Below are positions 3,671 through 27,101 of a DNA stretch of 32,000 nucleotides, piece by piece. Source of the DNA: Candidatus Saccharimonadota bacterium (GTDB taxonomy: Archaea > Micrarchaeota > Micrarchaeia > Micrarchaeales > Micrarchaeaceae). The notes beneath the pieces were generated by a model, which had not been told where the DNA came from, made no database searches, and saw only the letters and a list, made by a program, of their open reading frames with translations. The translations under genes were made by a program, and so were the position numbers. How positions within the stretch are numbered: the first letter of the stretch is position 1; the number at the start of each line of letters is the position of its first letter. The stretch covers positions 480,001 through 512,000 of the forward strand of contig NZ_CP019964.1 of the NCBI RefSeq assembly GCF_002214165.1, in the 5' to 3' direction.

Positions 3671-4918
3671 ATGGAAATTATAAGTGCCTACAAGTTCAGG
3701 ATCTACCCTGACGCAAAAAGGCAAAAAGAGATAGACCTGCAACTTTTGCTTTCAAAAGAATTCTACAACCTGCTTCTTGAAAAGTCGATAAAATCATATA
3801 AAGGAGGTAACAAGAAGCTTTCAATGTCAACCCTGAACAAGTTTGCCAAGGAGATAGAGAAGGACAAGAGATTCCTTCAAATATACTCACAGGTGCGTTG
3901 CGAAATAAAATATCGTGTCTTGAAGGCATACAAGAATTTCTTCAGAAGGATAAATGAAAAGAAGCAGGGCAAGAAAGTGAAGGCGGGCTTTCCCCGTTTC
4001 AAATCAAAAGACAGGTATTACAGCATAACCTACCCGCAAGACAACGGCTCTTTCAGTATAAAAAAGAAAGGCAAAAAGCACATGCTCAGGGTTTCCAAAC
4101 TGAGTGGAAGAATAGAAATAGAGTTGCACAGACCAATAGAAGGCAAAATAAAAACACTTACAATAAAGAAAAAGGCTGAAGAATATTTTGCAATCTTTAC
4201 CACAATCACAGAGACTGAACCTCCAAAAATTGAAGACACGAATCCTGTCGGTATAGATATGGGTTTGCATTCTTTTGTTACAACTTCTGACGGCATGAAG
4301 ACGGAGAAGCCAAAGTTTGTGAGAAAACATGTGAAGCACATTGCGAGATGGCAAAGAAAAATTGCGAGAAGGGAAAAAGGCTCTGAAAGAAGAGAGAAGG
4401 CAAAGCAGCATTTGCAAAATGAATGGGAACATGTTGCAGAGCAATCCAATGACTTCGCTCACAAACTTTCTAGTAAATTAGTAAATTCGGGATATACCTC
4501 ATTTGCAGTAGAAGGCCTTCATATTCAAAATATGGTAAAAAATCACAATCTTGCACAGTCAATTTATAATGCTTCATGGAACAGGTTCATCCAAATGCTC
4601 TCATACAAGGCTGAAAGTGCTGGTATGAAGGTAATAAAGGTAGACGCAAAAGATACGACACAGGAATGTAGCAACTGCCATCATATAAAGGAAGGCAATG
4701 AAAGACTGACATTAGGGGACAGAATATACCACTGTAATGTCTGTGGACTGACAATAGACAGGGATATAAACGCGTCAATAAACATACTCAAAAGAGCTAC
4801 CCTCGGACAGAGGGGAAGTCACGCTCAGAGAGAGGGTGTAAGACCTCAAATGGAGGCAGTTCTCGAGGAACTGAGAACCGCTAAAACACATCCTTTGCAG
4901 GATGCAGTGACTGCATGA
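3671..4918 (+). CDS. tnpB: TnpB / OrfB RNA-guided endonuclease (IS200/IS605 accessory protein)
   Basis: The N-terminus YKFRIYP is typical of the family. RuvC-like residues are present in GIDMGL, FAVEGL and DRDINASINIL. The zinc ribbon is CSNCHH...CNVCG. Confidence 0.9.
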   Translation: MEIISAYKFRIYPDAKRQKEIDLQLLLSKEFYNLLLEKSIKSYKGGNKKLSMSTLNKFAKEIEKDKRFLQIYSQVRCEIKYRVLKAYKNFFRRINEKKQGKKVKAGFPRFKSKDRYYSITYPQDNGSFSIKKKGKKHMLRVSKLSGRIEIELHRPIEGKIKTLTIKKKAEEYFAIFTTITETEPPKIEDTNPVGIDMGLHSFVTTSDGMKTEKPKFVRKHVKHIARWQRKIARREKGSERREKAKQHLQNEWEHVAEQSNDFAHKLSSKLVNSGYTSFAVEGLHIQNMVKNHNLAQSIYNASWNRFIQMLSYKAESAGMKVIKVDAKDTTQECSNCHHIKEGNERLTLGDRIYHCNVCGLTIDRDINASINILKRATLGQRGSHAQREGVRPQMEAVLEELRTAKTHPLQDAVTA

Positions 4919-4975
4919 ATGCGAAGGAAGCCCACACCGTTTACGGGTGGGAGGATGTCACCAGTTTAATATTTG
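4790..4975 (+). ncRNA. putative TnpB guide RNA (omega-RNA / reRNA) overlapping the tnpB 3' end and the right end
   Basis: By analogy with characterised TnpB systems, the scaffold is encoded by the ORF 3' end plus the right-end hairpin (4931-4951). The extent is not determinable from sequence alone. Confidence 0.35.
4931..4951 (+). repeat. right-end subterminal hairpin of the IS element
   Basis: CCCACACCG-TTTA-CGGGTGGG has the same stem core and TTTA loop as the left-end hairpin. The following GGATGTCACCAG resembles GAAAGTGAACCACAG after the left hairpin. Confidence 0.7.
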
Positions 4976-4987
4976 TGGGATAAGAGG

Positions 4988-5806
4988 ATGTTCATGGACG
5001 GGATTGGTGGATTGGATCTGGGTTATGGCAATAAAAAATCCATAAACCTGGTTACCGATCTAAACGGCACAATAGGAAATGGCACTTTGACTGGTGAGAA
5101 TGCCGATGCCTTCCAGAGGCTTGTCAATCGTGGTATAAACGTAATACCTGCAACCAGCTACTCGCTTGCTTCGGCTTTTGAAACCTATTTTTCACGGCTT
5201 TCCGTAAAGCCTAATATATTGATAGTTGAAAGGGGAAATGCGATAGCTGTTGAAAGGGGGAACGCAAACATAATATCAAGGTTTGCCAAGGCCGGCTTTC
5301 GGAATGAGAGGGCTGACGAATACGGATACATCGAATATGTGTTTGGCGATGACAATGAGGAGCTTTCAAGAAAGGTGCTTGATGTGTCAAAGGAGCTTGG
5401 CATATCTATTGGGATAGCTCCAATGTATGGGTGCTCAGCCGCAATCAAGATAATGTTCGATGAAAATAAAACTTCCTCACGCCAGTTGGAGGATAGGATG
5501 GATAAGCTTGGGATATCAATGCACCGTAATGGGCAGGGAACCGCAACCTTGGTAGATGACAGGTTCAACAAATGGACAAGCTACCTAGAGCTAGTCTCCA
5601 AGGGCATTATAGATGACGGATTTCTTATAGGGATAGGGAATGACCTGAACGATGTTCAGCTGCTCAACCACTCTGACATATCAATTCTTGTTGGCAGGAA
5701 GATAAATCCTTCAAGGCTGGCAAAGGAAGCATCGTACAAATTTGAAGGGCCTTGGGAATGGCACAAAGTTGAAAGCATAATTGAAAGGTTATTGCACAAT
5801 AAATAA
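4988..5806 (+). CDS. HAD-superfamily hydrolase, Cof/IIB-like
   Basis: Motif I-like LVTDLNGTI and motif IV GIGNDLNDVQLL. ATG starts are at 4988 and 4994; the track start at 4973 is TTG. Confidence 0.7.
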   Translation: MFMDGIGGLDLGYGNKKSINLVTDLNGTIGNGTLTGENADAFQRLVNRGINVIPATSYSLASAFETYFSRLSVKPNILIVERGNAIAVERGNANIISRFAKAGFRNERADEYGYIEYVFGDDNEELSRKVLDVSKELGISIGIAPMYGCSAAIKIMFDENKTSSRQLEDRMDKLGISMHRNGQGTATLVDDRFNKWTSYLELVSKGIIDDGFLIGIGNDLNDVQLLNHSDISILVGRKINPSRLAKEASYKFEGPWEWHKVESIIERLLHNK

Positions 5807-5820
5807 AAACAAATGATCTG

Positions 5821-6858
5821 ATGGAACCTAAAATATCTGTTATAATAAGCTCTTACAATCGTAAGGAGTTCATACGTGCGGCTGTCCAATCCGTGATGGA
5901 CCAGACACTTCGGAAGGATCTTTATGAGATAATTGTAGTAAAAAATTTCATTGACGGCGAGATAGATTCCTTCCTTCAGCAAAATAATGTGAAAAACCTT
6001 TATTACAGCCCGGATATTGCCAGAGGGGCAGGTACAAAGGCGGTGAAGGGGATAAAGGCCTCCAAGGGTGATGTGATATGCTTTTTGGATGACGATGACG
6101 TTTTCTCGAATGACAAGCTTGAGGAGGTATACAAGCTTTTCGCAGATGGCAGGATAGGGTTTTATCACAACGGGCATAAAATTTACTACTCTGGAAAAGC
6201 GATAGATGGTACTTGGGCGGACTCCGGAAATTATTACTTAACAGGAAAAGAGGCATTCACAGATGAGGATATTAAATTTTTGGCAAAGCATCAATTCTGG
6301 TTCAATAGCAGTTCAATATCTATGAGAAAGGGTATAATAGATCTTGAACTTCTAGGGAAGGTGAATTTCACTATTGATTATTACCTTGCATTTATGGGGA
6401 TAAACTCCAATATGGATGCGGTTTTTGATTACATGCCATTGACCCTTTATGGGGTCCATAATAGCAATGGAAGCAAGAGCTCAACCGAGGACTTCAAGAA
6501 ATTCTGCGATTCGCATAATGCTTACAATTCATCGCGCATAGATGACCATATTGCATTGTTTGATTACTTTAAAGGGAAAAAGGTTGGATTGCTGCTAGGC
6601 AAGTATTTTTTCAAGAAGAAGCTTGGATACCTGCTATTTTCTTCCAGAGGCAATGCTGCCAAGATTGACTATATCAAAACATCGTTTGACCTGCTCAAAT
6701 CCGACATTAAGCTCAAAATGTACGGTGACATCGCTGAAGCCATTGGCGGGTGCACACTTTTCCTGATAAGCCCCAACTCATTGAGAAGGAGGCTTTACAA
6801 GATGTATCTTAAAAATGAGGAAGAAAGAGAAAGGTTATTGGAAAGGCGGCAAGGTTAA
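5821..6858 (+). CDS. family 2 glycosyltransferase
   Basis: ISVIISSYNRKEFIRAAVQSVMDQT and FLDDDD are the GT-A fold signature and DxD-type acidic motif. Confidence 0.85.
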   Translation: MEPKISVIISSYNRKEFIRAAVQSVMDQTLRKDLYEIIVVKNFIDGEIDSFLQQNNVKNLYYSPDIARGAGTKAVKGIKASKGDVICFLDDDDVFSNDKLEEVYKLFADGRIGFYHNGHKIYYSGKAIDGTWADSGNYYLTGKEAFTDEDIKFLAKHQFWFNSSSISMRKGIIDLELLGKVNFTIDYYLAFMGINSNMDAVFDYMPLTLYGVHNSNGSKSSTEDFKKFCDSHNAYNSSRIDDHIALFDYFKGKKVGLLLGKYFFKKKLGYLLFSSRGNAAKIDYIKTSFDLLKSDIKLKMYGDIAEAIGGCTLFLISPNSLRRRLYKMYLKNEEERERLLERRQG

Positions 6859-11056: not shown

Positions 11057-12178
11057 TTACTCAAGGCTGCTGAAGTAATTGTCCGCCTGTTCCTTGTCCT
11101 TTTGATTTGGATTCATATGGAAATCGACCGCCGCATTTCCGTATAGGACATTTGGCGGATTCAGGTATGCTTCAAGCTCTTTCAGCTGCCTCTCGTCCTT
11201 CGAAAAGAAAACAAGGCTTGGGCCGGTGTCGGCAGTGACATATACGCCATCGTTCGATTTTTTGAAATCGAAGAACTTGCCAAGATTGCTCATGCTGCTG
11301 TTGTTGTGCACAAAGAATCCCGATGACATCAGTATCCCGTCAAGCCTGAACATGTCCTTTTCTGCCATCGAAAGGAGGTCCTCGGCTGAAAATGGGTTTT
11401 CGAGCAGCGCCTTTATCCTGTTGTACTTTCCAAAGATCCAATTCTTATAGAAATCTGATTGCACTGCTGCGGAATGCGCACTTATCGTCTCTATCAATGA
11501 CTTTTCTGGTATTGTGAAAAATTTGATGCCTTTGTAATCAGCCTCCATCCTCTCCGCATAGCACTCTTCGTTGGCTATACCTGGAAATGACATCCATAAT
11601 GATATCCCTCCTGCGGCGGACCTGCTGCCGGATCCTGAAACAAGCCTCGCATACCTTGAGACAAATGCGGTATCGCCAACTGCCTCTTTACCGAAAACGC
11701 ATCCCAAAAGAGCCCTTGCCGTTGCCGAAGCCACTGCCGCGGATTCTCCCAGCCCCTTTGCTTCTTTGTACCTGCGCTCCCTTTTGAGGAAGAACTGGAA
11801 GCTTCCTTCTATACTGTTCTCTTTTCGGAATAGGTCCAATGCCTTCTCCATCCTGCCTAGGTACTTCTCGTTTGTTGTGCCGTCCACCATTATCGAGTCC
11901 TTGCCCGATTTCGAATACCTGCAGAACGCCTTCGCAACACTGAAATCGGTATTCATTGATATTGACGGGCTGTATGCTATGTTCATTGATGGGTCATAGT
12001 AGCCCAAAAACTTTTCCATCCCTATTATAGGATTTCCTTCTCCATAGCTGATCTCTCCATCATGCGGGTCTGCTGTGTACCTTTTGGTTGAAAGGAATTT
12101 TCCGTTTTTTTGGGCAATCTTCTGGATTGCTGATCCCATTGCCTTCAGTTCCTGCATTTCAGAATTAGTCATCTCCAT
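11057..12178 (-). CDS. mevalonate-3,5-bisphosphate decarboxylase (diphosphomevalonate-decarboxylase homologue, Ta0893-like)
   Basis: GHMP/MDD-family features include RLVSGSGSRSAAGG (compare MDD GSGSACRS). Its length and operon context with the two Thermoplasma-type kinases support the call. Its start overlaps the upstream stop by 14 nt (ATGGAGATGACTAA). Confidence 0.7.
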   Translation of the reverse strand: MEMTNSEMQELKAMGSAIQKIAQKNGKFLSTKRYTADPHDGEISYGEGNPIIGMEKFLGYYDPSMNIAYSPSISMNTDFSVAKAFCRYSKSGKDSIMVDGTTNEKYLGRMEKALDLFRKENSIEGSFQFFLKRERRYKEAKGLGESAAVASATARALLGCVFGKEAVGDTAFVSRYARLVSGSGSRSAAGGISLWMSFPGIANEECYAERMEADYKGIKFFTIPEKSLIETISAHSAAVQSDFYKNWIFGKYNRIKALLENPFSAEDLLSMAEKDMFRLDGILMSSGFFVHNNSSMSNLGKFFDFKKSNDGVYVTADTGPSLVFFSKDERQLKELEAYLNPPNVLYGNAAVDFHMNPNQKDKEQADNYFSSLE

Positions 12179-12785
12179 AGTACTCTCCTACAAACTTGAT
12201 TACATCATCGCGTGTTTTTGCGTAATCCGTATTGTCAAATATTCTCATGCTGTTCTTCTTTAGCAGGTCTATTGAATAGTCCATTATGGACCTATATACA
12301 TCCAACTGGGCCGAAAGCCTGCTTCCAGGGGATTTCTTGTGCGTGTAAAGTTCGCGCTCGTTAAGCCTTTTTGAATGCAGATCCCAATCGGATATGTAAA
12401 GGTATGCGGAGCATGCATTGTATTTTTTAAGTGTGTCCAAAAGCTCCTGATTCAGGTAAAGGGATTCGACAATAACGTTTTCCCCATTCTTGTCGGCACG
12501 CTCAATCACCGCATTTATTCCGCTGCATATGGGCTTTGACTGCTCGAGGTATCCTTTTATTATGTTTTCATTGGTCTTTTCCCCAAATTCCTTCCAAGCC
12601 TCGTACACGCTTGTCATCAGGTTATTGCCTTCGCCTTTTGATGATATTATTGGCCTTGCAAACTCCCTAAGATAGTCTCCTGAAAGCATTATGTCTATAT
12701 TGTACTTCCTTGATAATGCCCCCGATATGCTTGTCTTGCCAACTCCAGGCACGCCGCCTATGAATATTATCTTGTAATCTGCCAT
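12165..12785 (-). CDS. mevalonate-3-phosphate 5-kinase (2-phosphoglycerate-kinase-like P-loop kinase, Ta0762-like)
   Basis: The N-terminus IIFIGGVPGVGKTSIS...LSGDYLREFARP matches the 2PGK-domain pattern. The roughly 200-aa size matches the Thermoplasma enzyme class. It sits between two MDD homologues. Confidence 0.7.
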   Translation of the reverse strand: MADYKIIFIGGVPGVGKTSISGALSRKYNIDIMLSGDYLREFARPIISSKGEGNNLMTSVYEAWKEFGEKTNENIIKGYLEQSKPICSGINAVIERADKNGENVIVESLYLNQELLDTLKKYNACSAYLYISDWDLHSKRLNERELYTHKKSPGSRLSAQLDVYRSIMDYSIDLLKKNSMRIFDNTDYAKTRDDVIKFVGEYYGDD

Positions 12786-12792
12786 TTTACCA

Positions 12793-13779
12793 TCATTCGT
12801 ATTTTACTTCTGTGACCCTTGCGGATGGCGCTACTTTGTACTCGACAGGTTTCTGTCCTCTGCTCCTTAGCTCCTTAAGCACATCACTTGCATAAGGATC
12901 CCATGTGAAGGCATTTATTACATTGCCTCCACCTGCAGTCCAGTATACGGGAAGACCCGACTGCCTTATCTCTTCTACGTCTATCACCGCATTCATCATC
13001 TCCTTCTTCCTTGCCCTGCCTCCTGAGCTCTCTATCAGGTAGTGAGCGTTTGAGCAGTTGTCCTCGGCATTGGAGAACACCATGTTCCAGTCCTTGTGCA
13101 GCAGCCCCAGTTTTATCTTGGCCTCCCACTGCGGCACCATCTTAAGCCTGTAGTCGTAGAATGGGCTGCTCCTCGTAAGCTGGAATATCTCTGCGGCGGA
13201 CAGCCTGCTGTCGTAATCAAATGTCATCGCAAATATGTGTATGTCCTTAAGGTCTTCCTCCGATGCAAGCTGCTTTGCATAAGGGGCTCCGGGGCCTTCC
13301 ACAACCAGTGTATTGAGCCCTCCGTAAACAGCCCTTATTGCGGATTCCGATATCTTGTTGGCAAGGAACGCAATCTTTTCGGTTTCGTAATTTGTCCCAA
13401 ACATCTTGTCCAAAGCGACAACAAATGCCGCCGCACCGGCATCGCTGCTCCCGGCAAATACGTTGTAGTTGTCCGACTCCGCCTTTATCCCATAGTTCTT
13501 TCCGCTTTCTTTCTGGAATGCCCTGAGCACCTCCGACATCGATTGCACCCTCTCCAATTGCAGTGCCTTGCCGTTCAGGATGAAACTTTCCAGCTCTCCC
13601 GAATCCGTCCTGCTTATGTGAGTCACAACCTTTGTCTTGCCTTCATTGTCGGTAACCGAAAGCCCCATTGAGTTGTGCAGAGGCAGCCTGTTGTCCCGTA
13701 CGCTCGATACAAATATTATGGGTATCGTTGGATTTGCTTCTGCTTTTACCTCTGATATTATTTTTTCATCTTTAGCCAT
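12793..13779 (-). CDS. mevalonate 3-kinase (MDD homologue, Ta1305/PTO1356-like)
   Basis: FAGSSDAGAAAFVVAL, ISESAIRAVYGGLNTL, FAMTFDYDSR and TAGGGNVINAF parallel blocks I recall from T. acidophilum Ta1305 (SGSSDAGAAS, VSESAGRSLFGGL, AFAFDYQR, TGGSNVYV). 328 aa. Confidence 0.75.
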   Translation of the reverse strand: MAKDEKIISEVKAEANPTIPIIFVSSVRDNRLPLHNSMGLSVTDNEGKTKVVTHISRTDSGELESFILNGKALQLERVQSMSEVLRAFQKESGKNYGIKAESDNYNVFAGSSDAGAAAFVVALDKMFGTNYETEKIAFLANKISESAIRAVYGGLNTLVVEGPGAPYAKQLASEEDLKDIHIFAMTFDYDSRLSAAEIFQLTRSSPFYDYRLKMVPQWEAKIKLGLLHKDWNMVFSNAEDNCSNAHYLIESSGGRARKKEMMNAVIDVEEIRQSGLPVYWTAGGGNVINAFTWDPYASDVLKELRSRGQKPVEYKVAPSARVTEVKYE

Positions 13780-13951
13780 AGTTGCACCTTAAGATCATTA
13801 ATCTGCATATTTTATTTTATATATGACAGTCATTATTTTGATTTAGTCTTTTTAACTTAATTCAAGGATATGGACAATTGTCTATTTGCAGGGAAACTGC
13901 CCTATTTTTATACAAAAAACTTTTAAAAGTAAGCTGCATATTTTAACTTCG

Positions 13952-14794
13952 GTGGATATATTGTATGTGTACGTGAGGAACATTGAACTGCCGCGCGCTG
14001 AAATAATTGGATGCAGCAGAAAACTTGATGACGAAGGGAAGGGGGCAAGCATAGAATTTCATTTGGACGATTACAGTATTGCAAAGGAATTCACGTCTTC
14101 TGACAAAAGCGTAAAGATTGAGAGGGAGGAAAAAGAGAAAGATCCAGGTAGGCAGAACAGTGCATCTGGGTATTCCTACTTTATCTCTTATGAACATGAA
14201 GGGCGCAGGCACCGGATTGGGCTGTACCCAAGAAGCATGGATGAAAAGGCAGTTCTTGATTACCTGAGCTCCCACCAGGGGCACTTCAAAACCGATGCCT
14301 ATTTCAGGGATATATTTGGCAACAATGTGAAAGTGGATTTTGCGTCTAGGTACTCCAGTACACTGAGGATATCATCACGTGTAAAAAGGCTGAAAGTTGA
14401 AAGCGACCTATACTTTGACGAGAATGAAAATTGCCAGACCTTGTCAATACCATATATACCTAACAAGCTCGCAAAGAAGCTTGAGACAGCAGAGAACCTG
14501 GTGGTTGAAAAGGTAAAATACCTTTATCCATCAGTTCCGGGTATTTTCAATAATGCGGGCAAGGATTATGATTACGCCATCAGCTTCAAATACCATGGGA
14601 TTAGGGATGAGATATACTTGGAACCTGTCAAGGAGGAGACCGAAAAGATGCTAGAATATCTATCATCCAATGGGAAGCTGTTAAGATATGGCAATATACG
14701 CACAGGAGATGGAACTTCCTCGATGGATATAGACTTCTCGTTGAAATACGAGATGGTTGACTTATATCTGGATGGAAAGAAGTTCCGCAGATGA
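13952..14794 (+). CDS. hypothetical protein built from two copies of an approximately 110-aa module
   Basis: Internal repeat: GYSYFISYEHEGRRHRIGLYPRSMDEKAVLDYLSSHQG...VKVDFASRY versus DYDYAISFKYHGIRDEIYLEPVKEETEKMLEYLSSNGK...MDIDFSLKY. There is no in-frame ATG near the 5' end. Candidate starts are GTG 13952/13967/13973; the track uses TTG 13886, which lies inside AT-rich promoter-like sequence. Confidence 0.6.
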   Translation: MDILYVYVRNIELPRAEIIGCSRKLDDEGKGASIEFHLDDYSIAKEFTSSDKSVKIEREEKEKDPGRQNSASGYSYFISYEHEGRRHRIGLYPRSMDEKAVLDYLSSHQGHFKTDAYFRDIFGNNVKVDFASRYSSTLRISSRVKRLKVESDLYFDENENCQTLSIPYIPNKLAKKLETAENLVVEKVKYLYPSVPGIFNNAGKDYDYAISFKYHGIRDEIYLEPVKEETEKMLEYLSSNGKLLRYGNIRTGDGTSSMDIDFSLKYEMVDLYLDGKKFRR

Positions 14795-14803
14795 TAGAAA
14801 AAT

Positions 14804-14819
14804 AATATATATTTGAATA
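14804..14819 (+). promoter_or_regulatory. TATA-box-like promoter motif AATATATATTTGAATA
   Basis: A 16-nt motif identical to 16150-16165. It ends 26 nt before ATG 14845, which fits an archaeal TATA box with a short or absent leader. Confidence 0.5.
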
Positions 14820-14844
14820 GCTTTTATTTTATCTAGTTGCTTTT

Positions 14845-16104
14845 ATGGCCTATAAGATAAAAGATTTAAACAATCAAGAATCCGATGCAAACCTAAAATC
14901 GCTCAACAGGGATCGTAAGGATCATCGCAGTGCAGGGCAGAGCAAAGAGGAAGAGCTAAATAGGCATTTCAAGGAATCCGATATTGAGAGATTCAAGGAT
15001 GCTGTTAAAATAGTCTACAGGAACTCGGTTGAGGGCTACAAGGGGCTCGTCCAAAAATACCGCACTGGGTTTAAGGCGCCGATTCTTTATTTTGATTTTG
15101 ACGATTCCTATAAAACGGCTTCTGGTTTTATTGATGATTCAAGGCTTAGCTTCAAAGTCCTTGGCGCTTACGATTTTATTTCGAATAGGATAATAATAAA
15201 ACCTGGCCTTCTTTACAAGTATGTCAATCATGGTTGTAAAACCTATAGCATTGAGCACACTGTAAATCATGAGATAGCGCATTCTTTGGTCAAACAATTG
15301 GGCCTTGCCGATGAAAGCATGGAGGAAGGCAAAACAGATTTCCATGGGATTGTCAAAGGCGAACTGCTCGCCAACCTGTTTGCGGCAGAACTTGAGGTTG
15401 CCAAGCAGGGGCTGCCGATTTCCAATGAATCCATGGCTAGGCAGCTAATCAAGGACGATTCAGACCTGGAGTACCTGTCCAAGGACATAGATGCTGCAAA
15501 GGCATATTTTAGGTGGCTCAATAAGTATTCAAGGGAGGCACAGAATGCCATTGAACATATATCGTATGAAGTATACAAGTACATAAAGAAATCGGAAGGG
15601 TCGGGGAAAGTAATCGATTATGATGCGGTAAATGATTATTATTCGGAAAAGGTTGACAAAGTGCTAAAGAATTACTTGGTCAACATAATGAGGAATTATG
15701 CCATATCGGTTTACAGCGCACCGGTTCTTGGAGCGGCAAAGGCACTGCTTAGCGAAAGAAAGGGTGTTGAAGAGATAATCAATAGCGTTTCAAAGGATAT
15801 GTCATCCGTTAAGGAGATCCGGAGGTATCTTAAGGGTTCGTTCGCCTCAGTTGATCTTAGATCCATGTCCATTACAAAGCCCGGCTCCATAAAGCGTATA
15901 CCAATCAAGCTTGTAACAGAATCCCTTAAGAACGAAGGCATATACTTTGATTATAAAAGCACGTTTTCTAGAATAGCGGATAGTGTTGAGGACGAGTTCG
16001 ACGAAATCGGCCATTACCTTTCTAAGAATCTAAGAACTGAAAGGAAACTGCTTAGGGACCTTTCACGGATGGAAAAACGGTTTGGCATAAATTCCATTTG
16101 GTAA
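14845..16104 (+). CDS. uncharacterised cytoplasmic protein with a single HExxH zincin-like motif (paralogue 1)
   Basis: NRIIIKPGLL...SIEHTVNHEIAHSL. No signal peptide or TM segment. It is a paralogue of the next gene along its whole length. Confidence 0.8.
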   Translation: MAYKIKDLNNQESDANLKSLNRDRKDHRSAGQSKEEELNRHFKESDIERFKDAVKIVYRNSVEGYKGLVQKYRTGFKAPILYFDFDDSYKTASGFIDDSRLSFKVLGAYDFISNRIIIKPGLLYKYVNHGCKTYSIEHTVNHEIAHSLVKQLGLADESMEEGKTDFHGIVKGELLANLFAAELEVAKQGLPISNESMARQLIKDDSDLEYLSKDIDAAKAYFRWLNKYSREAQNAIEHISYEVYKYIKKSEGSGKVIDYDAVNDYYSEKVDKVLKNYLVNIMRNYAISVYSAPVLGAAKALLSERKGVEEIINSVSKDMSSVKEIRRYLKGSFASVDLRSMSITKPGSIKRIPIKLVTESLKNEGIYFDYKSTFSRIADSVEDEFDEIGHYLSKNLRTERKLLRDLSRMEKRFGINSIW

Positions 16105-16149
16105 AGCTGTTGCTCTGAATTTAAGGGATCCGCAGATCGCTTGGCAACT

Positions 16150-16165
16150 AATATATATTTGAATA
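16150..16165 (+). promoter_or_regulatory. TATA-box-like promoter motif AATATATATTTGAATA (second copy)
   Basis: Identical to 14804-14819. It ends 24 nt before ATG 16189. Confidence 0.5.
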
Positions 16166-16188
16166 TGGATAAGCTTATTGGTGTTCCT

Positions 16189-17433
16189 ATGCCGACTAAG
16201 GCTGTTGATCTTGATAAGGATAAAAAGGTGGATTATTTAAAGGAAGACAAGGCGGATAGAGCCTTGGAAAAGGAGCCAAAGGTCAGGTTCAATGAAAAGG
16301 ACATAGAGCAGTTCAAGTCATTTATAAAAGACCTTTACAAGGCAGATCTTGATGGTTTTGCTGGGATAATAAATTCTTATTACAAGGATTTCAGGCCCCC
16401 AGAACTTTATTTTGATTTTGACAGTTCTTACAAGACTGGATTCAAGCTTATTGATGAATCTAAGATCAATTCGGTGGTACTGGCCGCATATGACAGGGGA
16501 TTAAATAAGATAATAATAAAGAGGGAGCTTCTGGATCTCTATAAGAAAGGCGAAGATAATGTTGATTCGATTGACCATGCACTGGCACATGAGCTCGGGC
16601 ATTCTATAGCAATGCAGTCAGACATTACCAAAAACGGGGTTTACAATAGCAAAAAAAGCATTTATGGGACGGTAACGGATGAACTGCTCGCCAACCTGTT
16701 TGCGGCAGAACTGATGATTGTCAAGCAGGGGCTGCCGATTTCCAATGAATCCGTGGCGAGGCAGCTGATTAAGGACAATGTTGACATAGAGTTCTTTTCA
16801 AAAGACATAGATGCTGCTAAGATATACCTAAAGGAACTTGATAATTATTCCACAAATGTTGTACCAAGCATCAAACGCATTTCAGATACGGTTCATGCCA
16901 AGATAATCGATTTTTCAAATAGGGGCTTAAAGTCTTTAAACTACGAAACCGTTGTAAAAATCAACAATGTCTACTTTGATGAAGTGAAAAAGCAGTTGAA
17001 TGATTATCTGATAAATGCGCTGGCCAACTATTCGATTCATGTGTACAGTGCACCATTGCTTGGCGCTTCTAGGGCGCTATTGAGCAAAAGGATGAGTGTC
17101 GGGCAACTGATAAATGCTGTATCTGATGATATATCATCTGTGAAGGAGATCCGTAGGTATCTTAAGGGTTCGTTCGCCTCAGTGAACCTTAAGATGTTGT
17201 CCGCGATAGAATCAGATTTAATTGAGATAACATCCGAACAGCCGGTTATAGAGGCGGTTAATGATCAGGATAAAATTTCTAATTACGCAGAGGTATTCTT
17301 GAAGGTAGCAGACAGAGTTGAGGATGAATTCAAGAACATGAACAGGCATTTGGAGATGGAAATAGAGAGCGAGAAAAGGCTTTTGAAGGATTTCTCAAAG
17401 TTTAAGAGAAAATTCGACAGAGGTACAAAATAA
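16189..17433 (+). CDS. uncharacterised cytoplasmic protein with a single HExxH zincin-like motif (paralogue 2)
   Basis: NKIIIKRELL...SIDHALAHELGHSI. The start is moved to ATG 16189 because MPTKAVDLDK aligns with MAYKIKDLNN of paralogue 1, and the track start (TTG 16141) would place the shared promoter motif inside the ORF. Confidence 0.8.
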   Translation: MPTKAVDLDKDKKVDYLKEDKADRALEKEPKVRFNEKDIEQFKSFIKDLYKADLDGFAGIINSYYKDFRPPELYFDFDSSYKTGFKLIDESKINSVVLAAYDRGLNKIIIKRELLDLYKKGEDNVDSIDHALAHELGHSIAMQSDITKNGVYNSKKSIYGTVTDELLANLFAAELMIVKQGLPISNESVARQLIKDNVDIEFFSKDIDAAKIYLKELDNYSTNVVPSIKRISDTVHAKIIDFSNRGLKSLNYETVVKINNVYFDEVKKQLNDYLINALANYSIHVYSAPLLGASRALLSKRMSVGQLINAVSDDISSVKEIRRYLKGSFASVNLKMLSAIESDLIEITSEQPVIEAVNDQDKISNYAEVFLKVADRVEDEFKNMNRHLEMEIESEKRLLKDFSKFKRKFDRGTK

Positions 17434-20459: not shown

Positions 20460-21650
20460 TCATGCTTTCAATAGGGGTATCTCCATCTCCTCCTTTGAAA
20501 GCCCTCCGTGATGGCCCGAGGAGCCAGAAACCCACTCCTTTCCTCCGGGGTACTCTCTGCCACCGGGATATTTGTAATAAAATATGTTTTTTCCTTTTGG
20601 TATGGCCATGTGCGTGCCGAAGCGGTATCTCAGCGAGTCGCTCACCTTCGTGCTACCGAACAAGCCGGATTTTATCGCTTCGCTGGAATCGTAAAGGATG
20701 AAGTTCTTCCCGAACTCCTTCTCAAACCCTTTTTCGAATTTCTCTCCCATGCCTTCGGCCGCATCGAAGAATATGCTCCTGTCGGTTCCCCATGGAGGGC
20801 TCCTTAGGTACTTCAGTATATTGGTTTTTGCGTCAAACCTGTTTATGTCCTCGTGCCTTGATGAAACCTGCCCGTGGTCGGATGATATGAGCAGTTCCCA
20901 TCCGTTGTCCTTGAGCTTTGGGAGCAGCTTCTCCATTATCATCTCCATGATGAATGTTGTTATGCTAAGTACGCGCCTTGAGTCCTTTGTATATTCATGC
21001 TGCGCATGGTCTATGTCAGGGATGTAGGTGTATGCCAGGTTGTACTGGTCCGATTCAGCGATGTCTATCGACTGGTAAAGGAGGTCATCAAATGATATGT
21101 AGTCCGTGTAGTTTATCTTGCTGTATAAGTATGTCTGCGAGTTCTTGTTCGTGACACGCTCAAACTGCATGTATATGAAATCCCCCCTGCTGCCCATTCT
21201 AAGGAGTGTATCCAAGTTGGGGAAAAGAGGTTCTGCCTCGGATTTCCCTGAGACCTCTTCAACCGATGGGCTCCATGGAAGCGTTAGTATGTCCTTCATC
21301 ATCCCGTACTCCCTTATCGGAATGGGGCTTCCGATTATACCGTGCTCCGCGGGCGTCTTGCCTGAGTCTATGCTCGTGAACACTGTAGGGGTGAAAGAAG
21401 GGAATACGGTGCTTATCTTGCCCATCTGCATTTCGGAGGGCAGTCTCTTTAGCTGCCTGCTGTTCGATATCGCGGATTTCAGCAGGTCATATCCAAACCC
21501 GTCGATGAAGAGAAGGAACCTCCGCTTTCTCTTCCCTCCTATCATCTTTCCATGGCCATCGGCCACTTCCTTCGCAAGCTCCATGCTGCTGTTTTTATAA
21601 TCTGGAAAAATAAACCCGTTATCAATTAGATCGGACTTTATGCTGTGCAT
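20460..21650 (-). CDS. alkaline-phosphatase-superfamily enzyme, nucleotide pyrophosphatase/phosphodiesterase (NPP)-like, copy 1
   Basis: FPSFTPTVFTSIDSGKTPAEHGIIG parallels the NPP nucleophile motif ([23 protein letters not shown]). Metal-ligand-like blocks: FIDGFGYD, DIDHAQHE, SSDHGQ, GHHGG. Confidence 0.8.
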   Translation of the reverse strand: MHSIKSDLIDNGFIFPDYKNSSMELAKEVADGHGKMIGGKRKRRFLLFIDGFGYDLLKSAISNSRQLKRLPSEMQMGKISTVFPSFTPTVFTSIDSGKTPAEHGIIGSPIPIREYGMMKDILTLPWSPSVEEVSGKSEAEPLFPNLDTLLRMGSRGDFIYMQFERVTNKNSQTYLYSKINYTDYISFDDLLYQSIDIAESDQYNLAYTYIPDIDHAQHEYTKDSRRVLSITTFIMEMIMEKLLPKLKDNGWELLISSDHGQVSSRHEDINRFDAKTNILKYLRSPPWGTDRSIFFDAAEGMGEKFEKGFEKEFGKNFILYDSSEAIKSGLFGSTKVSDSLRYRFGTHMAIPKGKNIFYYKYPGGREYPGGKEWVSGSSGHHGGLSKEEMEIPLLKA

Positions 21651-21834: not shown

Positions 21835-23007
21835 TCATGCTTTCAATAGGGGTATCTCCATCTCCTCCTTTGAAAGCCCTCCATGATGGCCTGACAACTC
21901 TGAAGTCCACTCCTTTCCTCCAGGGTACCTGTAATGGAAGAGCTTGTTATGCTTTGATATCGCTATATGGGTTGCGAAGCGGTATCTCAGCGAGTCGCTC
22001 ACCTTCGTGCTTCCAAACAGGCCGGATTTTATCGCTTCGCTGGAATCGTAAAGGACGAAGCTCTTGCTGAAATTCCTGCTGAACTCCTTTTCGAACTTCT
22101 CGCTCAACCCTTCGACGGTATCGAAGAACATTACTCTGTCGGTTCCCCATGGAGGGCTCCTGAGATACTTCAATACCTCGCTCTTTGCATTAAGATCTAT
22201 TATGTCATCGTTCTTTGATGAAACCTGCCCGTGGTCTGATGACATGAGCAGCTCCCATCCGTTGTCCTTGAGCTTTGGGAGCAGCTTCTCCATCAGCCTC
22301 TCCAGCATCATTGTGGTTATCCCAAGCCCAAGCCGTGAGCTCTTTGCATACTGGTGCTGCGCATGGTCTATTTCAGGGATGTAGGCGTATATAGTGTTGT
22401 ACTGGTCCGATTCCGCAAGATCCATTGACTGGAAAAGGAAATCGTCAAATGAGATGTAGCCTGTATAATTGATATTGTTGTACACATAGGTCTGGGCATT
22501 CTTCCTTGCAACCTGCTCGGACTGAAGGTAGAGGAAATCCTTTTTCCTGCCTGCCTTCAGCAAATTATCGGAGATCGGGAATGGTGATATTGTTTCGGAT
22601 TTCCCTGAGACTTCGTCAACCGATGGGCTCCAAGGGATCGAAAACATGTCCTTCATCATCCCATATTCTCTTATCGGGATAGGGCTTCCTATTATACCGT
22701 GCTCCGCGGGCGTCTTGCCTGAGTCTATGCTCGTGAACACTGTAGGGGTGAAAGAAGGGAATACTGTGCTTATCTTATCGACTTGCATTTTTGATGAAAT
22801 CCCTTTCAGCTGCCTGCTGTTCGATATCGCTGACTTCAGTAAGTCATACCCCAAGCCGTCGATGAATAACAGGAATCTTCTTTTCCTCTTCCCTCCTATA
22901 AGCTTTCCGTGGCCATCTGCCACTTCCTTCGCAAGCTCCATGTTGCTGCTTCCATAATCAGGGAACGCAAACCCTTTTTCAATCAGATCGGACTTTATGC
23001 TGTGCAT
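21835..23007 (-). CDS. alkaline-phosphatase-superfamily enzyme, NPP-like, copy 2
   Basis: Same motif set as copy 1 and identical N-terminus MHSIKSDLI and C-terminus GHHGGLSKEEMEIPLLKA. By eye, about three quarters of residues are identical. Confidence 0.8.
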   Translation of the reverse strand: MHSIKSDLIEKGFAFPDYGSSNMELAKEVADGHGKLIGGKRKRRFLLFIDGLGYDLLKSAISNSRQLKGISSKMQVDKISTVFPSFTPTVFTSIDSGKTPAEHGIIGSPIPIREYGMMKDMFSIPWSPSVDEVSGKSETISPFPISDNLLKAGRKKDFLYLQSEQVARKNAQTYVYNNINYTGYISFDDFLFQSMDLAESDQYNTIYAYIPEIDHAQHQYAKSSRLGLGITTMMLERLMEKLLPKLKDNGWELLMSSDHGQVSSKNDDIIDLNAKSEVLKYLRSPPWGTDRVMFFDTVEGLSEKFEKEFSRNFSKSFVLYDSSEAIKSGLFGSTKVSDSLRYRFATHIAISKHNKLFHYRYPGGKEWTSELSGHHGGLSKEEMEIPLLKA

Positions 23008-23421: not shown

Positions 23422-24792
23422 TCATTTCGGAGGGGCGACATAGAAATCGATCGGCCTTCCCAATGCCCCTTCCGCCGCCTCCTCGAGCCCTTCGCTCATC
23501 GTTGGATGCGGGTGTATCGTATCCGCTATGTCCTCAAGCATGGCGCTCATTTCTATTGCCAATGTCGCTTCGCCTATCACCACATCCGCGTTCTGCCCTA
23601 CGATTCCTACACCTTTTACCACACCGTTCTCGTCGTATGCGATCTTTGTAAACCCTTCGGTGGCGTCATCCGCTATGGCCCTTCCGGATGCGGAGAACGG
23701 GAACTTTATCGTTTTTATCCCGTCTCCCGAAAGCTTGCCAACAACCGCAATCTCCGGATCCGAGAGTATCGTCTCAGGCACTACGACATTGTCGAACTCG
23801 GAGTTCAATCCGGATGCGGATTCCCCTGCAATAACTCCCTGCCTGAGCGCTTTTGTCGCCGACATCGGCTGCCCGACTATATCGCCCGAGGCATAGATGT
23901 TTGGATCGGTTGTCTGCAGATGGCTGTCAACTTTTATGTAGCCCTTTTCGTTGAGCTGCACCTTTGTGTTGTCCAATCCAAGCCCTTCAGTGTAAGGCAC
24001 GCGTTCGGGCGACAGGGCGATTATGTCCGCTGTAATCTCCTTTCCGCTTTCAAGTGTTATCTTTCCATCGGAATACGACTTAATCGGATCCTTCTCGTAT
24101 ACTTCGACACCCATGTCCGCAAGCTTCTTCTTGGGCACTGCGATCAGCTCCTGGTCAATCCTTGAGAAGATTCCTTTCTCAGATATCACATATACTTTTG
24201 AACCGAGCTTCGCGAACATTGAGCTGAATTCTATAGCGGCATAATCGTCATTCACTATTGCGACGCTCTTCGGTATATAGTCCAAGGAAAGCACTGACTT
24301 ATGGTCAAGGACTTTCACTCCGTCGACCTTTAATTTTTCAGGCTGCTCGAGCTTTGTGCCAGTGGCTATTATCGCTTTCTTGAAGTTGAGGGTTACCCCA
24401 TCGCTAAGCTGCAATGAATTTGATGAAAGGAAGGACCCCATAGCGTTGAACACCTCAATCCCGTGCATTTTGCACAATGACTCGACTCCGGAGGACAGCT
24501 TCTTTGAAACTCCCATCCTGTATTCGTGGGCTTTCTTGAAGTCTATCTGTGGACTTCCCGTTATCCCAAGGTCCTTGTTTCCTTTCGCGTACTGGAATTT
24601 GTCCGCGATGTTTATCATTGTTGCCGCGGGTATGCATGTATAGTTCAAGCAGCTTCCTCCAAGCTTGTCAGCTTCTACAAGGGCAACGCTCTTTCCGAGT
24701 TCCGCTGCCCTTATCGCCGCAGTATATCCTCCTGCTCCTCCTCCTATTACTACTACATCCACTTCTTCAGGTAAAGATCCTACTACTCCCAT
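23422..24792 (-). CDS. lpdA: dihydrolipoyl dehydrogenase (E3)
   Basis: FAD motif VVVIGGGAGGYTAA. Redox disulfide GGSCLNYTCIP. C-terminal HPHPTMSE. Confidence 0.9.
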   Translation of the reverse strand: MGVVGSLPEEVDVVVIGGGAGGYTAAIRAAELGKSVALVEADKLGGSCLNYTCIPAATMINIADKFQYAKGNKDLGITGSPQIDFKKAHEYRMGVSKKLSSGVESLCKMHGIEVFNAMGSFLSSNSLQLSDGVTLNFKKAIIATGTKLEQPEKLKVDGVKVLDHKSVLSLDYIPKSVAIVNDDYAAIEFSSMFAKLGSKVYVISEKGIFSRIDQELIAVPKKKLADMGVEVYEKDPIKSYSDGKITLESGKEITADIIALSPERVPYTEGLGLDNTKVQLNEKGYIKVDSHLQTTDPNIYASGDIVGQPMSATKALRQGVIAGESASGLNSEFDNVVVPETILSDPEIAVVGKLSGDGIKTIKFPFSASGRAIADDATEGFTKIAYDENGVVKGVGIVGQNADVVIGEATLAIEMSAMLEDIADTIHPHPTMSEGLEEAAEGALGRPIDFYVAPPK

Positions 24793-24811
24793 AATTACAC
24801 CAATCTATAAA

Positions 24812-26107
24812 TTAATCCCCCATTTCAAGGAACTCCGGATCCTCTATATAGCCTTTCAGCTCGTTCCCGAACTTTACGGCCTCTGCCCCATCGACTACCC
24901 TGTGGTCGAATGTCAGTGTGAAAGGAAGTATCTTCCTTATCTCGACCTTTCCATCAACCGCTACTGGCATGTCCTTCATCATGCTGAAAGCGAGTATTGC
25001 TACGTCGGGAGGGTTTATCATAGGGATCCCTATGAATCCGCCGCCCAAGCTGCCCGCGTTCGTTATGGTGAACGAGGAATCCTTCATGTCATCCAATGTT
25101 ATCGTGTTGGCATAAAGCTTGTCCCTGAGGTCCGCTAGATCCCTTGCTATCTGGACTATGCTTTTCTTGTCGGCATCCTTTATCACGATAACCTTCAATC
25201 CGTCCTTTGTCTCCGCACCGAGCCCTATATTGTAATAGTGCTTCACCAGTATCTCCCTGTTTACCGGGTCGTAGCTTGCATTGAAGTGGGGGTTGTCCTT
25301 CAATGCGGCTACTGTAGCCTTAATCAATATTGGCAGGAATGTCAGCTTTATGTTGAACTGCTTCAGGAACTTGTCCTTCGCTTCGGAGACGATCCTGTTA
25401 AGCTCGCTCGCATCTATAAGGTCTATGTGCGATGCCCTTGGTATGGTCCATGACGCCTCCATGTTCTTGGCGATTGCCTTTCTCACCGGGGATAAAGGCA
25501 CATGCTCGATCTCCTCTCCATGCTTCTCCGCAAGAATCTCAGGATGCCTTGGCTTCTTCAATACGTCGGATGTCTCCTTCGCTGCATCCCTTACATCGAC
25601 TTCCATTATCCTTCCGTTAGGGCCGGTACCTTTTATCTGTGCAAGGTCGACTTTCAGCTGCTCCGCGAGCTTCCTCACGAATGGAGTAGTCAATATTTCG
25701 GGATGTGGTGCACCTTGTTGGGTTGGGGAGGATGCGGGCTTGGTCTCAGCTTGGGGCTTTGCCGGTGCTCCAGCACTTGCTTCTTGAGTCTTGTTTTGCT
25801 CCTGTGCTTTTGGTGCACTTGGCTGAGGAGCTGCCGCTCCTGCACTAGGCGCATTCTTAAGCTCATCAGGAGTGCCGACATATGCGAGTATGTCCCCTAC
25901 CTTTATGTCAGTGTTCTCCTTTGCGACAACCTTTACCGTGCCCCCTTTTATCGAGGGTATATTGACAACTGCTTTGTCTGTTTCAACCTGCATTAATGGC
26001 TGGTCCTCCTTTACTTGGTCCCCATCCTTTACAAGTATCTTCTGAATATGCCCTTCTGTTATACCTTCTCCTACATCTGCAAATTTGACTGTCTCCATTT
26101 TTACCAC
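24812..26107 (-). CDS. dihydrolipoamide acyltransferase (E2) of a 2-oxoacid dehydrogenase complex
   Basis: Lipoyl-lysine motif VETDKAVVNIPS. Ala/Pro-rich linker and a peripheral-subunit-binding region (GTGPNGRI). Catalytic DHRVVDGA. Confidence 0.9.
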   Translation of the reverse strand: MVKMETVKFADVGEGITEGHIQKILVKDGDQVKEDQPLMQVETDKAVVNIPSIKGGTVKVVAKENTDIKVGDILAYVGTPDELKNAPSAGAAAPQPSAPKAQEQNKTQEASAGAPAKPQAETKPASSPTQQGAPHPEILTTPFVRKLAEQLKVDLAQIKGTGPNGRIMEVDVRDAAKETSDVLKKPRHPEILAEKHGEEIEHVPLSPVRKAIAKNMEASWTIPRASHIDLIDASELNRIVSEAKDKFLKQFNIKLTFLPILIKATVAALKDNPHFNASYDPVNREILVKHYYNIGLGAETKDGLKVIVIKDADKKSIVQIARDLADLRDKLYANTITLDDMKDSSFTITNAGSLGGGFIGIPMINPPDVAILAFSMMKDMPVAVDGKVEIRKILPFTLTFDHRVVDGAEAVKFGNELKGYIEDPEFLEMGD

Positions 26108-26116
26108 TTAAAAAAT

Positions 26117-27091
26117 TTATGCTGAAAGCAAACTATCAATCGCTTGTGAAACCCTCTTCTCATTTGGAATCCAGTAATTCTCGTATCCCGCAAACGGTAT
26201 AGGCGTGTGGAATCCTGCGACACGTAGTATAGGCGCTTTGAGTTCAAACATCGCCTTCTCTGCTATCACAGCTGACACCTCCGCACCTACACTGAATGAT
26301 TTCTGGTCCTCATGCACTATAAGCGCTCTGCCTGTCCTCTTGACGCTGTCCAGTATTGTCTTCTCATCCAACGGGTTTATCGTCCTAAGGTCTATCACAT
26401 CAGCGGAAACCTTCTTGTCTTTCACCGCATTCTGGACTACTGGTGACATTGTACCATAGGTTATTATAGTAATGTCGTCTCCGTGGTTGACAACGTTTGC
26501 CTTTCCTATTGGGACCTCGTAACTGTCTTCCGGCACCTCCTGCTTGAACATCCTGTAAAGCTTCGTAGGCTCTATGAATACAACAGGATCGTTTAAGTGG
26601 GAAGCCGATATAAGAAGCCCTTTTGCGTCATATGGTGTCGATGCCTCTATAACAACCAATGATCCTATATGTGAGAACAACGCTTCCGGGCTTTCAGAAT
26701 GTATCTCGGGTCCTCCAACCCCACCGCTTGCGGGGAACCTTATAACCATAGGTATGGGCATCTTTGACCTTGTCCTTGTCCTGAACCTCGCCGCATGATG
26801 CATTATCTGAGAGAACGCCTGGTATGAAAATCCACCGAACTGTATTTCGGGGAACGGGTGCATCCCTCCCAATGCCATACCAACTGCAGTGCCTATTATG
26901 GAATTTTCAGCCAAAGGCGTGTTCATTACCCTTGTGGGCCCGTATTTGTCTAGCAGCCCATCGGTCACCCTGAATACCCCTCCGTCCTTTGCTACATCCT
27001 CTCCCATTATTACTATATCCTCGTTTTCGGCGAGGCAAAGATCCAATGCATTATTCAACGCAGAAATCATATTCGCCATCATTTTATCCAC
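26117..27091 (-). CDS. 2-oxoacid dehydrogenase E1 component, beta subunit
   Basis: Transketolase-like pyrimidine-binding and C-terminal domains (GEDVAKDGGVFRVT...NTPLAENSIIG...IDLRTINPLD). Confidence 0.9.
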   Translation of the reverse strand: MDKMMANMISALNNALDLCLAENEDIVIMGEDVAKDGGVFRVTDGLLDKYGPTRVMNTPLAENSIIGTAVGMALGGMHPFPEIQFGGFSYQAFSQIMHHAARFRTRTRSKMPIPMVIRFPASGGVGGPEIHSESPEALFSHIGSLVVIEASTPYDAKGLLISASHLNDPVVFIEPTKLYRMFKQEVPEDSYEVPIGKANVVNHGDDITIITYGTMSPVVQNAVKDKKVSADVIDLRTINPLDEKTILDSVKRTGRALIVHEDQKSFSVGAEVSAVIAEKAMFELKAPILRVAGFHTPIPFAGYENYWIPNEKRVSQAIDSLLSA

Positions 27092-27101
27092 CTATTAAAA
27101 T

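Follow-up and report, generated by a model that had tools for sequence, protein, structure and literature searches.

In a 32,000-nucleotide window of the chromosome of Candidatus Mancarchaeum acidiphilum Mia14 (DPANN, Micrarchaeota), which is the whole stretch of DNA analysed here, two tandem genes encode proteins that form, on sequence grounds, a divergent and architecturally novel branch of a known protease family. These genes, Mia14_0539 and Mia14_0540 (g2 and g3 below), follow a shorter gene, Mia14_0538 (g1). We lean towards the view that residues ~40–205 of g2 and g3 make up a divergent Peptidase M78 (ImmA/IrrE, COG2856) core, with an HExxH motif and a Glu 27 residues on, and that the two proteins would be intracellular regulatory proteases of the M78 type, carrying a novel domain for sensing or substrate choice. 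A preliminary description of the locus, written from its letters alone, had reported three consecutive plus-strand open reading frames (ORFs), all of which are as described. The lineage that it had in mind, Thermoplasmatales, was wrong: Mia14 is a micrarchaeon that lives as an ectosymbiont of the Thermoplasmatales archaeon Cuniculiplasma (PMC5498576). The publication on the Mia14 genome makes no mention of g1–g3 (PMC5498576).

The genes and the motifs of the predicted core are as follows.

13967–14794, plus strand: g1 (Mia14_0538), orphan alpha/beta protein of 275 aa with a GTG start; single homologue, P0007
14845–16104, plus strand: g2 (Mia14_0539, WP_088820122.1), 419 aa, predicted M78-like zincin core and orphan helical C-terminal domain (ORF, paralogy, AlphaFold2 (AF2), hhalign)
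16189–17433, plus strand: g3 (Mia14_0540, WP_088820123.1), 414 aa, paralogous to g2 and called "ImmA/IrrE family metallo-endopeptidase" in RefSeq (ORF, BLASTP)
14962–15459, plus strand: predicted zincin domain of g2 (residues ~40–205), built of a long helix, three strands and two further helices, one bearing the HExxH and one E173 (AF2, hhalign)
15268–15282, plus strand: HEIAH of g2 (H142, E143, H146), invariant in 7/7 aligned members
15361–15390, plus strand: ELLANLFAAE of g2; E173, putative third zinc ligand, at +27 from H146 (motif and alignment)
16588–16602, plus strand: HELGH of g3 (H134, E135, H138) (sequence motif)
16681–16710, plus strand: ELLANLFAAE of g3; E165 at +27 from H138 (sequence motif)

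A probable divergent M78 core in g2 and g3

The two proteins are full-length paralogues with 45% identity over 388 residues by BLASTP (E = 6e-108), which bears out the estimate by eye that roughly half of their residues are identical. Each contains a single HExxH, HEIAH in g2 and HELGH in g3, and as first noted this is preceded by N(R/K)IIIK..LL (NRIIIKPGLL and NKIIIKRELL, respectively). Neither has a membrane-spanning segment, as originally stated (maximum Kyte-Doolittle average over 19 residues, 1.18–1.36); the accompanying claim that they lack a signal peptide is judged solely from their hydrophilic N-termini. Seven members of the family containing the domain could be aligned: five from two Mancarchaeum-like genomes (Mia14 and the metagenome-assembled genome (MAG) "Micrarchaeota archaeon HSP2.bin36") plus P0009 and P0010, described below. 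Residues H142, E143, H146 and E173 of g2 are invariant across all seven. In IrrE a downstream Glu acts as a zinc ligand.

To place the domain we compared profiles with hhalign. An early comparison with three bona fide Pfam M78 phage genes gave 95.4% probability (E = 1.7e-8); since these three had been picked through their similarity to the query, we collected a reference set of 41 non-redundant phage M78 proteins by similarity to an E. coli phage M78 protein. Against this set the family profile matched with 96.6% probability (E = 6.5e-10, score 73.4) over 85 columns (query 89–183), which span the strands, the HExxH and the Glu helix. The reversed query reached 1.7% and 20 column shuffles at most 0.4% (scores 9.8–17). 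When the HExxH was masked the score was 30.4, compared with 9.8–22.4 for the controls. The pattern E..AN.FA..LL.P occurs in 27 of the 40 genuine phage M78 proteins listed, mostly 22–41 residues past the second His (in one at 12). Searching phage genomes with the core by tblastn yielded weak matches (E = 0.1–10); the annotated ones were mostly "ImmA/IrrE family metallo-endopeptidase" and came from three unrelated phage groups, and full-length g3 matched no phage. Matches below threshold were obtained to Peptidase_M78 in 4/8 members (best E = 0.0012), to SprT-like in 4/8, to CapP of PADLOC in 6/8 and to the metallo-protease family phrog_87 in 3/9. The AF2 model of g2 has an overall predicted local distance difference test (pLDDT) score of 53 and is usable for residues 40–200 only; within the zincin domain block means are mostly 67–95, with low-confidence loops at 92–104 and 157–167.

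The preliminary description was thus right to see a minimal zincin, and of the layouts it offered (SprT/WLM, DUF45 or ImmA/IrrE) the last is favoured by the E-x2-AN-x-FAAE helix and the M78 profile match. Its statement that no named family could accommodate the proteins was too strong, given this match and the name that RefSeq already assigns to g3. RefSeq calls both g1 and g2 "hypothetical"; g2, which is 100% identical to "hypothetical protein Mia14_0539", can by sequence be annotated like g3.

Assignment of the zincin domain to the SprT/WLM group (DNA-protein crosslink proteases) or to M57 appears extremely unlikely. Its basis is the SprT-like matches mentioned above (best E = 6e-4, below the Pfam cut-off), an M57 score of 20.9 bits against a cut-off of 21 (g3 only) and the alternative RefSeq name of g3, "M57 family metalloprotease". 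These groups use a His that closely follows the HExxH (HExxHxxxxxH-type) as their third zinc ligand. No third His follows the HExxH in the seven aligned members, which instead read HE(I/L)(A/G)HS(L/I)..Q with Q151 invariant, and this argues against both SprT/WLM and M57. Moreover, the E-x2-AN-x-FAAE helix is an M78 hallmark, and the profile match reaches beyond the HExxH (the hhalign comparison covering M78 alone).

An orphan C-terminal domain and comparison with known systems

The ~230 C-terminal residues of g2 and g3 are family-specific and predicted to be helical, with low confidence (pLDDT below 50), and they had no known match in profile, family or structure searches. This agrees with the long helical region without a recognised motif that had been noted after the HExxH. 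Two motifs, Y(S/G)(A/G)P.LGA.KALL and S..K(E/Y)(I/V)..YL.G..A, are kept even in distant members.

With ImmA of the B. subtilis element ICEBs1 and the phage M78 proteins (COG2856, PF06114), g2 and g3 share the HExxH and the E-x2-AN-x-FAAE helix at the usual spacing and a predicted small alpha/beta zincin core in a soluble, intracellular protein. They differ in falling below the Pfam cut-off, in having no adjacent or fused XRE repressor, in their ~40-residue disordered N-terminus and long N-terminal helix, and in being tandem paralogues with their own promoters in an archaeal (DPANN) host. ImmA, furthermore, has no counterpart of the C-terminal domain. As proposed for g2 and g3, IrrE/PprI of Deinococcus and CapP, a protein associated with cyclic-oligonucleotide-based antiphage signalling systems (CBASS), carry beyond their M78 core an additional C-terminal domain with a presumed sensing or regulatory role; CapP is also the best PADLOC model match of the family (best E = 1.7e-5). 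The C-terminal domain of CapP is GAF-like. That of IrrE is GAF-like as well (PMC6868357), whereas the domain of g2 and g3 is predicted to be all-helical and is unrelated to them by sequence. No DdrO- or CapH-like helix-turn-helix (HTH) substrate gene and no CBASS genes lie near g2 and g3: the CapH HTH repressor and the operon of a cGAS/DncV-like nucleotidyltransferase (CD-NTase) that go with the CapH/CapP pair were not found next to them, and the matches to the capP model are weak.

The locus also resembles the toxin-antitoxin-like COG2856-Xre modules (Makarova et al. 2009, PMC2701414), which are small modules of a predicted Zn protease and an upstream partner gene with a patchy distribution and paralogous expansion. 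Here, however, g1 lacks an Xre/HTH domain and is without relatives other than P0007, and no PIN or RelE third component is present at g1–g3.

Distribution of the family

Relatives were sought by a word-index search of 5.8 billion clusters and an exhaustive hidden Markov model (HMM) search of 1.84 billion representatives. The former returned five HExxH-family proteins only, and the latter added three: P0009 (on the 6.2-kb contig L005), P0010 (zincin domain only, on the 1.6-kb contig L004) and P0008 (a C-terminal fragment, on L006). An enriched-profile search gave no further members and a first metagenome scan none; about nine sequences were found in all. A scan of 185,579 species genomes brought up HSP2.bin36 as the only carrier.

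The HSP2.bin36 contigs (L001/L003) share their gene order with the window along more than 15 kb: mevalonate operon (minus strand), g1 orthologue (P0007), P0002, P0004, P0005, a 329-residue membrane protein and YbjQ; in Mia14, too, the block is flanked by the mevalonate operon, the membrane protein and YbjQ. The HExxH genes number two in Mia14 and three in HSP2.bin36, answering the earlier question of whether copy number varies. By amino acid identity the orthologous pairs are g2 and P0002 (58–59%) and g3 and P0004 (53%). P0005 stems from another duplication within the g3 lineage: it shares 65% identity with P0004, and the first 30 codons of the two match exactly at the nucleotide level. Judging from these comparisons the duplication that gave g2 and g3 predates the split of the two Mancarchaeum-like species, and a third copy is found in the other species.

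No genes of the syntenic block evolve faster than g1, g2 and g3, which have 64, 58 and 53% amino acid identity (70–98% for ten flanking genes). Synonymous differences from HSP2.bin36 are saturated (pS, the proportion at synonymous sites, ~0.73) while the corresponding proportion at nonsynonymous sites (pN) is 0.21–0.28, which indicates that all three genes are real and under purifying selection. A more distant relative, with a mevalonate-3-kinase 69% identical to that of Mia14, carries unrelated genes in place of the block.

Contig L005 holds two family members (5–2347 and 4257–5823), one of them frameshifted, with a membrane-protein gene between them. Both have an extra N-terminal domain of ~90 residues that is unrelated to g1 (z = −0.7 and −1.0). 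The member of 780 residues has in addition a C-terminal extension with a second HExxH (HEGFH); we rejected this as a second M78 domain, as it is not M78-like by hhalign. P0008 (L006, 1–240), the sole member from Joint Genome Institute (JGI) metagenomes, is a C-terminal fragment after low-complexity GAT/GTT repeats on a contig of 23% GC, and looks like either a degraded copy or a misassembly.

Duplicated promoters and gene conversion

The duplicated promoter motifs and two tracts of gene conversion map as follows.

14803–14819, plus strand: g2 promoter motif (TATA/BRE-like) TAATATATATTTGAATA, exact copy, ending 25 nt before ATG 14845
16149–16165, plus strand: g3 promoter motif TAATATATATTTGAATA, exact copy, ending 23 nt before ATG 16189
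15331–15474, plus strand: tract 1 in g2, partner g3 16651–16794
16651–16794, plus strand: tract 1 in g3, partner g2 15331–15474
15763–15867, plus strand: tract 2 in g2, partner g3 17095–17199
17095–17199, plus strand: tract 2 in g3, partner g2 15763–15867

An identical promoter motif before each paralogue had been proposed, and both copies of TAATATATATTTGAATA are indeed exact. At up to three mismatches this 17-nt sequence occurs at just these two sites in the 32 kb (0.36 expected; 5 of 100 shuffles gave 2). With 1–3 mismatches it also precedes all three HSP2.bin36 paralogues, implying that the duplication unit took in the promoter. Both g2 and g3 are predicted to have their own duplicated TATA-type promoter and a leader that is very short or absent. 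Some gene calls start g3 at TTG 16141 or ATG 16165, and the database versions of g3 (430 and 422 aa) and P0005 (434 aa) begin upstream of or inside the promoter motif (16141–16188; L001 12818–12847). The position of the motif argues against these two starts; the 414-residue RefSeq form of g3 (ATG 16189; GTG in orthologues) suits both the promoter and the family alignment better.

Within the two tracts the paralogues of one genome are more alike (77–94% nucleotide identity) than are the orthologues (63–73%). For tract 1, pS is 0.25–0.33 between paralogues of the same genome and 0.67–0.80 between orthologues. Quartet sites group the sequences by genome by 13 to 1 in columns 176–200 and by 11 to 5 in columns 326–350; elsewhere they favour orthology by 96 to 28. 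Tract 1, which takes in the catalytic Glu helix, encodes ELLANLFAAE...PISNE..ARQLIKD, and tract 2, at a C-terminal motif, encodes SSVKEIRRYLKGSFASV. Gene conversion is confined to the most conserved segments while the rest of the protein diverges quickly, a pattern that would fit a shared chemistry with recognition surfaces that diversify.

How g2 and g3 might act

By analogy with the proteins compared above, and given the usual pairing of COG2856 with Xre (PMC2701414), we read g2 and g3 as site-specific proteases with a domain for sensing or substrate choice. They would be soluble, cytoplasmic and regulatory, with a catalytic core that would cleave a single specific partner, as in ImmA, IrrE and CapP, and a non-catalytic C-terminal domain that would respond to a signal or pick the substrate.

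Several results weigh against this interpretation. The gathering cut-off of Pfam PF06114 (22 bits) is missed, g3 scoring 14.8 bits (E = 0.025) and g2 giving no match; more generally, no Pfam, NCBIfam, PADLOC or PHROGs family was above cut-off for either protein, and profile searches against PDB sequences returned no meaningful match for the HExxH family. Foldseek, which the preliminary description had suggested as a check, found no significant match for the full-length model (best E = 0.15 in PDB, and 0.29 for the best BFVD match, "Peptidase M48"; none below 0.001). The top PDB matches, the pore toxins AhlB/SmhB and BAR domains, were rejected as long-helix artefacts of the low-confidence region. 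A confident match to a housekeeping peptidase family, which that description had named as a result that would refute it, was not found. XRE accompanies most COG2856 proteins, adjacent or fused (PMC2701414); here there is no XRE/HTH partner or fusion, and no HTH match was obtained in g1–g3 at E up to 1–5. The spacers around g1–g3 are only 50–187 bp and leave no room for an additional gene such as an XRE/HTH partner. As to the C-terminal domain, its low pLDDT and lack of detectable relatives make a sensor or substrate role pure inference.

Finally, some COG2856 proteins work without proteolysis, such as Rir, which inhibits a repressor without cleaving it although it has an HExxH (PMC6868357). 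We therefore considered that g2 and g3 might likewise be non-proteolytic binders, anti-repressor-like or scaffolds, that retain the zincin fold, with the large helical C-terminal domain perhaps serving as an interaction scaffold. However, the M78 signature and each of the four residues for catalysis or zinc binding are invariant in the paralogues and in distant members, and the catalytic segment is the most conserved one and is homogenised by gene conversion, making this alternative very unlikely.

The orphan repeat protein g1

The gene upstream of the two putative proteases encodes a soluble, acidic-to-neutral alpha/beta protein with two modules of 65 residues.

14156–14353, plus strand: g1 repeat module 1 (residues 64–129; self-comparison)
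14552–14749, plus strand: g1 repeat module 2 (residues 196–261; self-comparison)

The modules (65–66 residues) are 27% identical (E = 3e-7). Their Smith-Waterman score has a z of 8.2 and was reached by none of 500 shuffles, and hhalign of the N-terminal against the C-terminal half gave 87.8% (E = 3e-6), in support of the two-module structure first proposed. As had also been recognised, g1 needs a non-ATG start. Three are available in frame: GTG 13952 (used in the preliminary description), TTG 13961 (GenBank, 277 aa) and GTG 13967 (other gene calls, 275 aa). All are kept in HSP2.bin36, where the orthologue starts with GTG. A longer ORF from TTG 13886 was ruled out by a 1-nt indel relative to HSP2.bin36 at ~13935.

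P0007 of HSP2.bin36 is the only homologue of g1 (64% identity; pN 0.21, pS 0.70). No Pfam, NCBIfam, PADLOC or PHROGs family exceeded its cut-off, no HTH or structural signal was detected, and the profile had no meaningful match among PDB sequences; the structure model (pLDDT 39) is unusable. An "RL domain" match (20.5 bits, cut-off 22.8) was rejected as it is absent from the orthologue and from module 2.

Do the three genes form a system?

The architecture itself is real and rare: a divergent M78 core with an orphan helical domain, in tandem, beside an orphan repeat protein. It is conceivable that g1 is the partner of the proteases, given that it is placed like ImmR relative to ImmA and is adjacent to them in two syntenic genomes. 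A system of g1 and the proteases is nevertheless unproven, because the g1 homologue is limited to HSP2.bin36, distant family members lack g1 and each gene has its own promoter. The view of the three genes as one system is therefore not supported: only the close, fully syntenic relative has g1, while three distant members are without it in short contigs (no g1 homologue was found by tblastn in L004–L008). The preliminary description had taken the absence of a conserved neighbourhood in relatives as a sign of unrelated genes. This was found in part, the neighbourhood being conserved in HSP2.bin36 only, and the comparison has low statistical power.

A second interpretation is that the block is a conflict module (anti-virus, toxin-antitoxin-like or symbiont-host), with the proteases as effectors or triggers and g1 as bait, inhibitor or immunity protein. 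We hold this to be rather unlikely. The rapid evolution of g1–g3, the variable copy number, the near absence of the family from public data and the lack of the block beside the same mevalonate operon in the more distant relative are in its favour, as are the opposite orientation of the block to both flanks and its lower GC. COG2856 proteases are moreover common in toxin-antitoxin-like and phage or defence regulation modules (PMC2701414), and CapP is the best PADLOC match. Yet there is no PADLOC system, no HTH, nuclease or other effector partner, and no integrase, tRNA or repeat boundary at the block, which lies within conserved chromosomal synteny. Distant family members are, again, devoid of a g1 homologue, and selection is purifying overall rather than diversifying.

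Promoter region and neighbouring genes

The spacer between the mevalonate operon and g1 is the best conserved of the block.

13780–13966, no strand assigned: spacer separating g1 from the minus-strand mevalonate-3-kinase gene, with putative divergent promoters

Its nucleotide identity to HSP2.bin36 is 82–90%, compared with 7–73% for the other spacers in the block; unlike the spacer, the genes flanking it are saturated at synonymous sites. It contains two TATA-like boxes, CTTTTAAAAG (13920–13929) and TATTTTAAC (13939–13947), and the 10-bp palindrome GACAATTGTC (13873–13882), which is conserved in HSP2.bin36 and may serve as the binding site of a regulator within a bidirectional promoter. In the spacer neither an Rfam family nor an RNA folding signal was found.

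On the minus strand, three genes at 11057–13779 form an operon for the Thermoplasma-type mevalonate pathway, their best NCBIfam matches being bisphosphomevalonate decarboxylase, mevalonate-3-phosphate 5-kinase and mevalonate-3-kinase (all under the equivalog cut-offs); such an operon is notable in a DPANN symbiont with a Thermoplasmatales host. A second tandem duplication in the window, also on the minus strand, comprises paralogues of the phosphodiesterase/alkaline-phosphatase superfamily at 20460–21650 and 21835–23007 (Pfam Phosphodiest in a relative), which cross-match each other's orthologues with 72–73% nucleotide identity. Between 29000 and 32000 GC falls to 25–29%, from ~42% for the window. 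This region holds GT2 and GT4 glycosyltransferase genes (30234–31259 and 31291–31980) and adjoins a 2-oxoacid dehydrogenase complex (E3, E2, E1beta and E1alpha at 23422–28184). The Mia14 genome carries small genomic islands (PMC5498576), and the low-GC region fits one of these.

Implications

As a finding from sequence data, the assignment of g2 and g3 to the M78 proteases is an incremental annotation result. A bolder proposal, which we think distinctly unlikely, is an HTH-less M78 module of Mancarchaeum-like symbionts in which the fast-diversifying paralogues would bind viral or other foreign proteins, or proteins of the host Cuniculiplasma, through the orphan helical domain, and g1 would be a bait, inhibitor or substrate. 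If true, this would be a protease-based sensing or conflict system without a described counterpart. That tiny DPANN genomes keep two to three diverging protease copies under separate promoters suggests a function of some importance for the symbiont. Proteases of the ImmA/IrrE type are usually assumed to cut an XRE repressor encoded next to them; g2 and g3 lack this partner and have an additional domain of ~230 residues. Finding the substrate of g2 and g3 would widen the regulation known for this class of proteases, in the archaea and in an obligate symbiont.

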